Source of the DNA: Paludibacter sp.
GTDB lineage: Bacteria > Bacteroidota > Bacteroidia > Bacteroidales > Paludibacteraceae
Direction: 5' to 3'
DNA length: 47,571 nucleotides
NCBI GenBank assembly: GCA_030653695.1
Contig: JAURYY010000080.1
Location: 1-47,571, forward strand
The notes beneath the pieces are model-generated. The model had not been told where the DNA came from. It worked only from the letters and a program-made list of their open reading frames with translations, and did no database searches. Shown in pieces: positions 9,913 through 47,321 of the stretch (position 1 is the first letter of the stretch; every line of letters begins with the position of its first letter). Position numbers and translations under genes: made by a program.

Positions 9913-10024
9913 TCTTGTCTTGATTCTTGACTCTTGTCCCGATAGACTTCGCCGATAGCTATCGGCGTGAGCTCAGTCGAACGCTCAGTCGAACGCTATC
10001 GGGATGGCTCTTGGCTCTAATATC
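9913..10024. repeat. Composite nested palindromic repeat in a TTGACTC-like heptamer array
   Basis: TCCCGATA-GACTTCG-CCGATAGCTATCGG-CGTGA-(GCTCAGTCGAAC)x2-GCTATCGGGA at 9937-10004. An inverted homologue lies at 45912-46003. Confidence 0.9.
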
Positions 10025-12120: not shown

Positions 12121-12153
12121 GTCCCGATAGCTATCGGCGAAGTCTCACGGGAT
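12121..12153. repeat. Partial composite palindromic repeat
   Basis: GTCCCGATAGCTATCGGCGAAGTCTCACGGGAT shares CCGATAGCTATCGGCGAAGTC with the composite at 45959-45979. Confidence 0.85.
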
Positions 12154-19992: not shown

Positions 19993-20000
19993 TACCTTTG
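19993..20000 (+). promoter_or_regulatory. -7 promoter element for era (TACCTTTG)
   Basis: Exact TAnnTTTG match. It would place the 20068-20139 palindrome in the era 5' UTR. Confidence 0.6.
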
Positions 20001-20067
20001 CCATCAGTTTGTAAAGTTTGAAAGTTAAAAGTATAAACAAGGGTAAACTCAAACCTTCAAACTTTCA

Positions 20068-20139
20068 TCCCGATTCCCGATTCCCGATTCCCGATAGCTA
20101 TCGGGAATCGGGAATCGGGAATCGGGAATCGGGACGGGA
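20068..20139. repeat. Concentric palindrome (TCCCGAT)4-AGCT-(ATCGGGA)5-CGGGA
   Basis: Read directly; 20068-20127 is a perfect 60-bp palindrome. Confidence 0.97.
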
Positions 20140-20166
20140 CAAACTTTCAAACAACAAACATTTAAC

Positions 20167-21048
20167 ATGCAAAAATCAGGTTTTGTAAATATAGTCGGTA
20201 ACCCGAATGTGGGCAAATCGACATTAATGAACGCTTTAGTGGGCGAGCGCATTTCAATTATTACTTCAAAAGCTCAGACAACCCGTCACCGAATACTCGG
20301 CATTGTTAACGGAGACGATTTTCAAATCGTATATTCCGATACACCCGGTGTGCTGAAGCCAAATTACGGACTGCAGGAATCCATGCTTAAATTTTCGCGC
20401 TCGGCGCTGACCGATGCTGACGTGCTGCTTTACGTAACCGATGTGTACGATACTTATGAAAAAAATGTCGAATTTGTCGAAAAAGTTAATTTCAACCCTG
20501 CTCCTTTAATTCTGATTATCAACAAAATAGATTTGATTGATCAGGAAAAATTAGAAGCGTTGGTCGAAAAATGGAAAAGCGTAATGCCGCGTGCCGAAAT
20601 ATTTCCGGTATCGGCCATCCTCAAGTTTAATATCGAACCTTTGTTTAAACGAATTAAGGAATTACTGCCTGAATCACCGCCTTTTTTTGATAAAGATCAG
20701 CTGACCGATAAACCCGCACGGTTTTTTGTGAACGAAATTATCCGTGAAAAAATTCTTATGAACTACGAAAAGGAAATACCTTATTCGGTCGAAGTGGAAG
20801 TAGAACAATTTCTGGAAGACGACAGGTTAATCAAAATAAGTGCCGTAATTTATGCCGAGCGCGATTCGCAAAAGGGAATCCTGATTGGACATGGAGGAAA
20901 ATCACTCAAAAAAGTGGGTACTGAAGCCCGCAAAGATTTGGAGGTCTTTTTCGATAAAAAGGTTTTTCTTGAGTTGTTTGTAAAAGTGGAAAAAGACTGG
21001 CGTAACAAAGATATTAAATTACGAGGATTTGGCTATAATCCTGATTGA
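20167..21048 (+). CDS. era: GTPase Era
   Basis: Motifs GNPNVGKSTL, QTTR, DTPG and NKID, plus KH-domain EIPYS and QKGILIG..G. Confidence 0.98.
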   Translation: MQKSGFVNIVGNPNVGKSTLMNALVGERISIITSKAQTTRHRILGIVNGDDFQIVYSDTPGVLKPNYGLQESMLKFSRSALTDADVLLYVTDVYDTYEKNVEFVEKVNFNPAPLILIINKIDLIDQEKLEALVEKWKSVMPRAEIFPVSAILKFNIEPLFKRIKELLPESPPFFDKDQLTDKPARFFVNEIIREKILMNYEKEIPYSVEVEVEQFLEDDRLIKISAVIYAERDSQKGILIGHGGKSLKKVGTEARKDLEVFFDKKVFLELFVKVEKDWRNKDIKLRGFGYNPD

Positions 21049-42507: not shown

Positions 42508-42605
42508 TTGATTGGTTGATTGGTTAATTGGTTAATTCGTTAATTCGTTGATTGGTTAAATCGTTGATTGGTTTCCCGATAGCTATCGGGAGGTTAATTG
42601 GTTAA
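42508..42605. repeat. Tandem octamer array (TTRATTSG) interrupted by a perfect TCCCGATAGCTATCGGGA (42574-42591)
   Basis: Eight units at 42508-42571, then TT-[18-mer]-GG, then TTAATTGG TTAA. Confidence 0.95.
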
Positions 42606-45911: not shown

Positions 45912-46003
45912 GATATTAGAACCAAAAACAATCCCGATAGCGTTCGACTGATCTCACTCCGATAGCTATCGGCGAAGTCCATCGGGACAAGAGCCAAGAA
46001 CAA
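45912..46003. repeat. Composite nested palindromic repeat, inverted homologue of 9913-10024
   Basis: TCCCGATAGC-GTTCGACTGATCTCACT-CCGATAGCTATCGG-CGAAGTC-CATCGGGA (45932-45987) with CAAGAGC-type heptamer flanks. Confidence 0.9.
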
Positions 46004-46086
46004 TCCCGATTCCCGTCCCGATTTATCGCGAAAACCCAAACCCGAAACCCGAAACCCGAAACCCAGCATATTCTGATTTATCGGGA
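46004..46086. repeat. Cluster of TT-core palindrome variants and an AAACCCG heptamer array
   Basis: TCCCGAT-TCCCG-TCCCGATTTATCGCGA (46004-46031), (AAACCCG)3 at 46038-46058, and TTCTGATTTATCGGGA (46071-46086). Confidence 0.85.
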
Positions 46087-47027: not shown

Positions 47028-47321
47028 TGAACTGAAAGTTTTTTTTAATGATGTAAAAATATTTTGAAGTAATTACTTGTGAAATTAGAACATTTTTTCT
47101 CTGAAAGTTATTGATTGGTACATTTCAACCCAAATAAATGGAGTCGTTTTAACTTTATAGCGATGGTAATGTCATAATTACGCTGTAAAGATACAATAAA
47201 AAATGATATATTTTTATTGCACATTCGTAGTCATTTAAAAAACGGATTATAGGCTGTTTTATTTAACATTTAATGTCTATCGGCTTTTGCAGCCAATGAA
47301 ATAAATTTAACTCAAATATTT

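Follow-up and report, generated by a model that had tools for sequence, protein, structure and literature searches.

The origin and spread of REP-like palindromes are a question of long standing. In the accessible parts of the reports that come closest to the element described here, some REPs are found inserted inside other palindromes (PMC3733652), stem-extending template switching is documented (PMC8794818), and the four-helix-bundle ORF of rRNA intervening sequences (IVS) is noted to carry heptamer repeats, like the arrays that host our element (PMC4990558). SsnA, a stand-alone GIY-YIG protein, cuts hairpin-forming single-stranded DNA in a strand-specific manner; the cut falls upstream of the hairpin rather than in its loop, and the available parts of that paper report no insertion activity (PMC11893778).

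Here we analysed a stretch of 47,571 nucleotides from Paludibacter sp., hereafter the window. At 20068–20139 it reads (TCCCGAT)×4 AGCT (ATCGGGA)×5 CGGGA, just as an earlier note on this DNA had described it, with a perfect 60-bp palindrome (30-bp arms) at 20068–20127 followed by one more ATCGGGA and CGGGA up to 20139. Also as described there, the array lies between a promoter box (19993–20000) and the start of era (20167). Its core is an 18-bp palindrome, E, enclosed by short units that we refer to as shells. E is likely a tiny mobile element; its occurrence is real and non-random, and it represents an apparently undescribed variant of small palindromic mobile DNA. The locus is made up as follows.

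19993–20000, plus strand: promoter box TAnnTTTG, here TACCTTTG; conserved ahead of era at 29 of 29 orthologous loci of the genus
20007–20026, plus strand: inverted partner array of the GTTTGAAA type, with predicted base-pairing to the 3′ array in the transcript
20045–20067, plus strand: TTTCAAAC-type heptamer array of the host, to the left of the insertion; the same array type, without E, is found in the orthologous leaders L002 and L006
20068–20088, unstranded: left shells, three 7-nt units (TCCCGAT)×3
20068–20127, unstranded: perfect 60-bp palindrome
20089–20106, unstranded: core element E, perfect 18-bp palindrome TCCCGATAGCTATCGGGA, with 103 exact copies genome-wide
20107–20139, unstranded: right shells (ATCGGGA)×4 + CGGGA; the outermost pair is a canonical 7/5, and the unit number is possibly variable
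20140–20159, plus strand: heptamer array of the host, to the right of the insertion and continuing into the AT-rich initiation region
20167–21048, plus strand: era (GTPase Era; NF000908, 364 bits, cut-off 237)

The sequence TACCTTTG, a match to TAnnTTTG, is what we take to be the Bacteroidota −7 promoter box. One N-gapped locus apart, leaders of the 29 orthologous era loci vary from 34 to 221 nt; two of them have the same inverted arrays as the era leader studied here, and the palindrome is absent from all 29. Folding z-scores of the array are −12.1 as RNA and −9.0 as DNA, with 0 of 200 shuffles folding equally well. No Rfam match was found for the array, one tRNA being the sole Rfam match in the window, and no intrinsic terminator is predicted at the era hairpin.

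The earlier note had considered that the structure might be an artefact of assembly. Logan contigs of run X1, the one run found to contain this DNA, which is possibly the source sample and offers read support as contigs only, tile the locus, and the era array structure is real; what these contigs do not secure is the number of units in the right arm. Among the contigs listed, depth is 19 in the left flank up to 20097, 38 in the core and 17 in the five-unit run, and at the exit into era (20105–20150) it is 5.5, against about 19 in the left flank. The contigs break at 20100, 20134 and 20121, all unit boundaries, and the assembly-only k=31 graph has no branch there. Given the low exit depth and these breaks, the units of the right arm may differ in number from molecule to molecule, or the pattern may be a library artefact. 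With the core as reference, three shells lie on the left (7,7,7) and five on the right (7,7,7,7,5), which is less symmetric than the four versus five units given previously. Nowhere else in the assembly do five 7-mers follow one another, so this array probably owes its shape to slippage or to correction between its arms; we regard it as atypical and likely homogenised by slippage. The identity of its units, taken before as a sign of recent events, does not require them.

Genome-wide, the E core is present in 103 exact copies, compared with 1.5e-5 expected from base composition, and in 185 copies within two mismatches. Shells occur at 71 of the 185 loci, on both sides at 60 and on a single side at 11 (Fisher p 2e-35); the lengths of the two arms are correlated (rho 0.55, n=60). 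The concentric, self-targeting structure deduced earlier from era alone is thus borne out. The proposed rule of growth, replacement of the central AGCT to give 7/7 shells, turned out to be a minor one: at equal-depth loci it covers 4 of the 70 shell pairs, and of the 60 innermost shells it covers 12. There are two sizes of shell unit, 7 (TCCCGAT/ATCGGGA) and 5 (TCCCG/CGGGA), and the same 70 pairs comprise 33 of 7/5, 33 of 5/7, the four of 7/7 and none of 5/5. The usual self-insertion is an off-centre replacement of 6 nt (AGCTAT or ATAGCT), not of AGCT, and yields 7/5 or 5/7. Adjacent shell units alternate in 131 of 138 cases (era excluded), and 9/3 and 3/9 forms are also present. In 41 of 46 asymmetric cases, the orientation of the outermost shell is set by the flank. 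One protein of this genome (C188:16899-18338), which in our view resembles a KdsA-KdsC fusion, has a nested E together with a heptamer array in frame in its linker.

Element E is not confined to this genome. Of 61 genomes from the genus and the order Bacteroidales, 22 contain it, this one included. A total of 14 stretches from 11 other Bacteroidota genomes, among them that of a cultured Aequorivita isolate, carry its exact 7/5 form. Of 13 metagenome matches with a left 7, the unit on the right was a 5 in 10 (about 6 of the roughly 9 distinct loci) and never a 7. A 400-genome sample of the class had nested forms in three genomes, 6/5 twice and 5/5 once; therefore, shell sizes are not universal. 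We also noticed E in 52 stretches of viral contigs (L084–L135), often in terminator-like loops, tRNA-like sequences and REP-like repeats.

These observations bear on the simplest alternative, namely that each arm grew by independent slippage or that the structure is an assembly artefact at a hairpin. The contig breaks and the low right-exit depth, which suggest unit-number variation at era, are in keeping with it, and so is the atypical character of the era array. Yet the two-sidedness, the 7/5 complementarity and the alternation hold genome-wide, and the same nested form recurs in 11 other genomes, so that we find this alternative scarcely credible. The earlier dismissal of slippage as a general account stands; at era slippage can explain the extra 7-mers, though only these.

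A second element, F (ACTTCGGCGTGAGCTCAGTCGAACG), is a 25-nt imperfect hairpin inserted at AG^CT of E and of itself, in either orientation. Among its 45 parsed loci genome-wide, nesting is 1/1 at 26, 2/2 at 7 and 6/5 at one. Insertion at AG^CT with one arm added per side, as suggested in the earlier note, is an exact fit for F. Variants of E replace 5 nt in the arm of F. The window contains these further copies of the two elements:

9937–10004, unstranded: composite in which E is split at AG^CT by F (two shells), with a CG-form of E inside F
12122–12152: F locus
42574–42591, unstranded: unshelled exact E copy in an octamer array
45932–45987, unstranded: second E/F/E composite, degenerate

Also in the window, positions 46004–46064 have left shells of 7 and 5 and a broken core, adjoining an AAACCCG heptamer array.

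Comparison with empty paralogues of non-periodic hosts revealed what E replaces. At 12 filled loci in 10 host families, 3–5 nt are replaced without duplication, the lost patches being AGAA, GTTT, AAATA, AGCCT, AAAA, GTAAT, ATT, AAGCT, GACT and a further patch of 4 nt. Self-matches, matches that contain E and long gaps were dropped from this comparison, and periodic arrays (C3:8100, C19:2403, C61, C144, C157:13026, C157:24650, C358 and C381) were set aside as ambiguous, since their matches give both −2/−3 and +4/+5. Flanks resembling 2–3-bp duplications occur at 74 of 115 oriented sites. A 2–3-bp target duplication by a staggered cut is nonetheless ruled out by the empty sites with their 3–5-nt loss; because a 7-nt period minus 4–5 nt equals 2–3, apparent duplications in 7-nt arrays, which make up most of the hosts, are indistinguishable from a 4–5-nt loss. 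When 11 empty sites were folded, most of the replaced bases came out unpaired; several patches are linkers or bulges and not apical loops, and unpaired bases are common as background in this AT-rich DNA.

Structured RNA genes give the same picture. In a tandem GIY-YIG array (L064), ATAAT in the anticodon loop is replaced by E in five tRNA-derived repeats beside an empty copy; elsewhere, E has replaced AGCC of a T-loop (L063) and AGC of a D-loop (L037). An RNase P RNA in an Aequorivita capsosiphonis record (L034; RF00010, 126 bits) has two E-type inserts in its variable regions, one of them nested 7/5. At the tRNA and RNase P loci inspected in other genomes, the 7/5 form lies on the RNA-sense strand. 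This, together with the many copies in leaders, would fit an origin in which E is installed from RNA or from a reverse-transcribed oligonucleotide into folded transcripts or their genes. We nevertheless consider such a route very improbable. There is no RVT_1 match in this assembly (98% complete, 383 contigs), nor in 3 of 5 well-assembled E-positive genomes, and the intergenic loci of this genome have no strand bias: their outer 7/5 orientation relative to the gene strand is 18 versus 12, which is not significant, and a transcription-strand bias of the outer shell was rejected on that count.

Among other repeats of this genome are 86 abundant MITE/IS-like ends, ATGACTATCGG(C/G)TTTTG(C/T)ACCC, often located at contig ends (one is near 47272 of the window). 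Some carry E or E/F inside and serve as empty-site controls. One neighbour of this end looks IS1595-like. With E the 86-copy end shares CTATCGG only, and among the matches listed most copies read CTATCGGC. No gene bounded by E halves was found among the matches listed.

How might such a pattern form? On balance, we consider it probable that E is a non-autonomous 18-nt hairpin element spread by single-strand cut-and-replace, with later shells arising via local template switching. A trans-acting nuclease, most likely a small GIY-YIG ssDNA nuclease, would remove an unpaired patch of 3–6 nt from one strand, and an exact copy of E would take its place without target duplication, the tip of E itself being such a patch. 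The first self-insertion would lose 6 nt off-centre and produce a 7/5 shell. Subsequently, the nascent left arm would mispair with the outer right shell and copy back through the core and the outer left shell. Such a switch would swap shell sizes and make the new core the reverse complement of the old one, so that 7/5 and 5/7 would alternate. The size rule L(d)=R(d+1) is met in 105 of 124 comparisons. At two loci (C270:22182 and C153:1532) the same substitution is mirrored one shell apart; three steps there fit a new core that is the reverse complement of the old one, the innermost step at both loci lacks the variant (these 2 steps fail), and every other variant observed occurs once. Although the numbers are small, the mirrored variants suggest that some of the later shells arose by inverted copying within the locus. 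Neither the first shell nor the arrival at distant sites is accounted for by template switching, because exact E ends are needed there without homology. At era, one canonical 7/5 round was probably followed by slippage or quasi-palindrome correction, generating pure 7-mer shells that propagated; slippage or arm correction and then 7/7 propagation would make the simplest history of this array.

The main competing idea, the growth model of the earlier note with its geometry corrected, dispenses with template switching: each shell would be a fresh enzymatic insertion of an independent E copy, 6 nt off-centre, with the strand chosen by a bulge left from the previous round. The primary insertion and the first shell do share a geometry (exact E in, 3–6 nt out), F reaches a nesting depth of 6/5 with all copies in one orientation, a pattern that mirror-copying would not produce, and the flank orients the outermost shell as described above. 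Independent donors, however, should not repeat a substitution mirrored one shell apart, as seen at C270:22182 and C153:1532, and an extra strand-choice rule is needed. For these reasons we view repeated fresh insertion as unlikely and prefer cut-and-replace followed by template switching.

Which enzyme could perform the cut-and-replace step? No enzyme gene is linked in cis to the E loci of this genome. Profile matches in the assembly include 7 GIY-YIG, 7 Y1, 13 four-helix-bundle, 17 GxxExxY and 5 DUF559 proteins, the last two families having been counted in this genome only. Across 61 genomes, E count correlates with GIY-YIG count (rho 0.59; 0.49 within the genus), and at least three GIY-YIG genes are present in 18 of 22 E-positive versus 9 of 39 E-negative genomes. 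This correlation is confounded by kinship, related genomes among the 61 not being independent, and by general mobile-repeat load. E lies in the loops of repeats flanking PF01541 genes (L060, L062–L064), as does an E variant (L066), and in this genome a single degenerate copy, at C287, is beside GIY-YIG genes. Pseudo-tRNA copies may carry E because insertions survive at neutral sites, and not through any activity of the neighbour. Small GIY-YIG proteins are the best lead to the enzyme and Y1 proteins the next. We also observed tandem arrays in which partial tRNA copies, many of them with a loop palindrome, stand between small GIY-YIG genes (L064:518-2796, L062, L063, L066, L067, L069, L070). 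Other palindromes appear in this tRNA/GIY-YIG setting in other genomes (L061, L067, L069), and those filling the role of E include CCTGCCTGCCGGCAGGCAGG, itself nested-looking.

An HUH Y1 (IS200/RAYT-like) transposase might instead move E as a single-strand hairpin swapped for a short target loop. E count and Y1 count are correlated over the 61 genomes (rho 0.45), Y1 is found in all 22 E-positive genomes, and one of the 7 Y1 genes of this genome (C135) has E inserted in a flanking REP-like hairpin. But Y1 is also present in 26 of 39 E-negative genomes, and the correlation within the genus is weak (rho 0.30, p 0.07). Insertion by Y1 enzymes is not known to cause target loss. GTAG/CGTC tetranucleotides lie within 8 nt of an end of E, at the foot of the hairpin, at only 4 of 185 loci, and 6 of the 7 Y1 loci inspected have REP-like flanks of their own or none, so that no RAYT gene flanked by E was found among them. 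Taken together, this makes Y1 an improbable mobiliser, and we retain a small GIY-YIG nuclease as the leading candidate.

The four-helix-bundle genes were considered too and set aside as mobilisers, their link to E count being weak (rho 0.32, 61 genomes); they mark host arrays instead. Both these and the GxxExxY genes lie between inverted arrays of 7–11-nt units, like the arrays that E invades. Gene-less remnants of such four-helix-bundle/GxxExxY-type arrays fill many leaders, including that of era.

E is found mostly in leaders and gaps of housekeeping genes. As judged with a crude ORF caller, only 1 of 165 intergenic arrays lies less than 17 nt from a start codon, versus 6% of random positions, and 21 of 165 lie at 17–30 nt, versus 4% expected. 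This spacing is consistent with selection keeping the initiation region free. At era, the gap from the array end to the ATG is 27 nt; the insert looks tolerated rather than functional, and the hairpin is probably tolerated because it is clear of the start codon.

We found no published description of E, searches with the literal motifs GATAGCTATC, CCGATAGCTATCGG and TGAGCTCAGTCGAA included; subscription papers and supplements, such as the repeat tables of PMC3733652 and PMC11893778, could list it. As a tentative generalisation, which we think rather less likely to be right than wrong, E may belong to a class of 15–25-nt "micro-hairpin" replicators across Bacteroidota, loop-exchanged enzymatically into the cut sites of further selfish nuclease cassettes (GIY-YIG/tRNA, DUF559, four-helix-bundle and GxxExxY heptamer arrays), as well as into loops of RNA genes and into one another. 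The exchange would involve neither duplication nor reverse transcriptase, and the replicators would lack a transposase of their own. They would be the smallest mobile elements described, and they may immunise cassettes against their own nuclease. The filled and empty sites, the strict 7/5–5/7 rule and the mirrored variants record the geometry of the reaction step by step, making mechanisms testable with oligonucleotides and 100-aa proteins. If true, a "short patch out, fixed hairpin in" exchange directed to particular sites on single-stranded DNA would amount to a new kind of chemistry. It would also offer a model for intervening sequences that replace RNA loops and for long perfect palindromes growing in the leaders of essential genes.

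Each of the known systems shares some of these traits. Judging from the available parts of the respective reports, Ssn NTS/SRM repeats resemble E in being short hairpins present in hundreds of copies, are associated with stand-alone GIY-YIG genes, as E may be, and make strand-specific ssDNA chemistry plausible; those parts describe no insertion or nesting (PMC11893778). In contrast to the SRM, E is a perfect palindrome without an oriented flank: 0 of 185 E loci overlap the degenerate SRM pattern, which has 3 matches elsewhere in the genome, and E sits inside such repeats without being one. Inverted local copying in quasi-palindrome or template-switch mutation extends and perfects stems (PMC8794818, accessible parts) and fits the later shells and the perfect 60-mer, but a switch within one locus has no means of carrying an exact 18-mer to unrelated sites far away. 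Rickettsia palindromic elements and MITEs are likewise non-autonomous palindromic inserts, sometimes in frame (PMC3733652, accessible parts), for which the nested E in the KdsA-KdsC-like linker is a single parallel; E is much shorter and shows 3–5-nt loss at its empty sites in place of a target-site duplication.

Two further likenesses are to REP/REPIN/BIME sequences with their RAYTs and to rRNA IVS, again as far as the accessible parts of those reports extend. The former are small extragenic palindromes with high copy number and a patchy distribution across relatives (PMC3733652), traits shared by E, which differs in having no REP doublets, no cis RAYT, a 3–6-nt replacement and alternating self-nesting. 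In the latter, a small loop of a structured RNA is replaced by a longer stem-loop (PMC4990558), and this is also what E does in tRNA loops and, with two inserts, in RNase P RNA. Unlike an IVS, E is 18 nt long, has no ORF, occupies tRNA, RNase P RNA, leaders and repeats (no rRNA case was seen) and nests in itself. In short, as far as the accessible accounts of both systems allow the comparison, E works like a miniature intervening sequence, loop out and stem-loop in, and is distributed like a REP.
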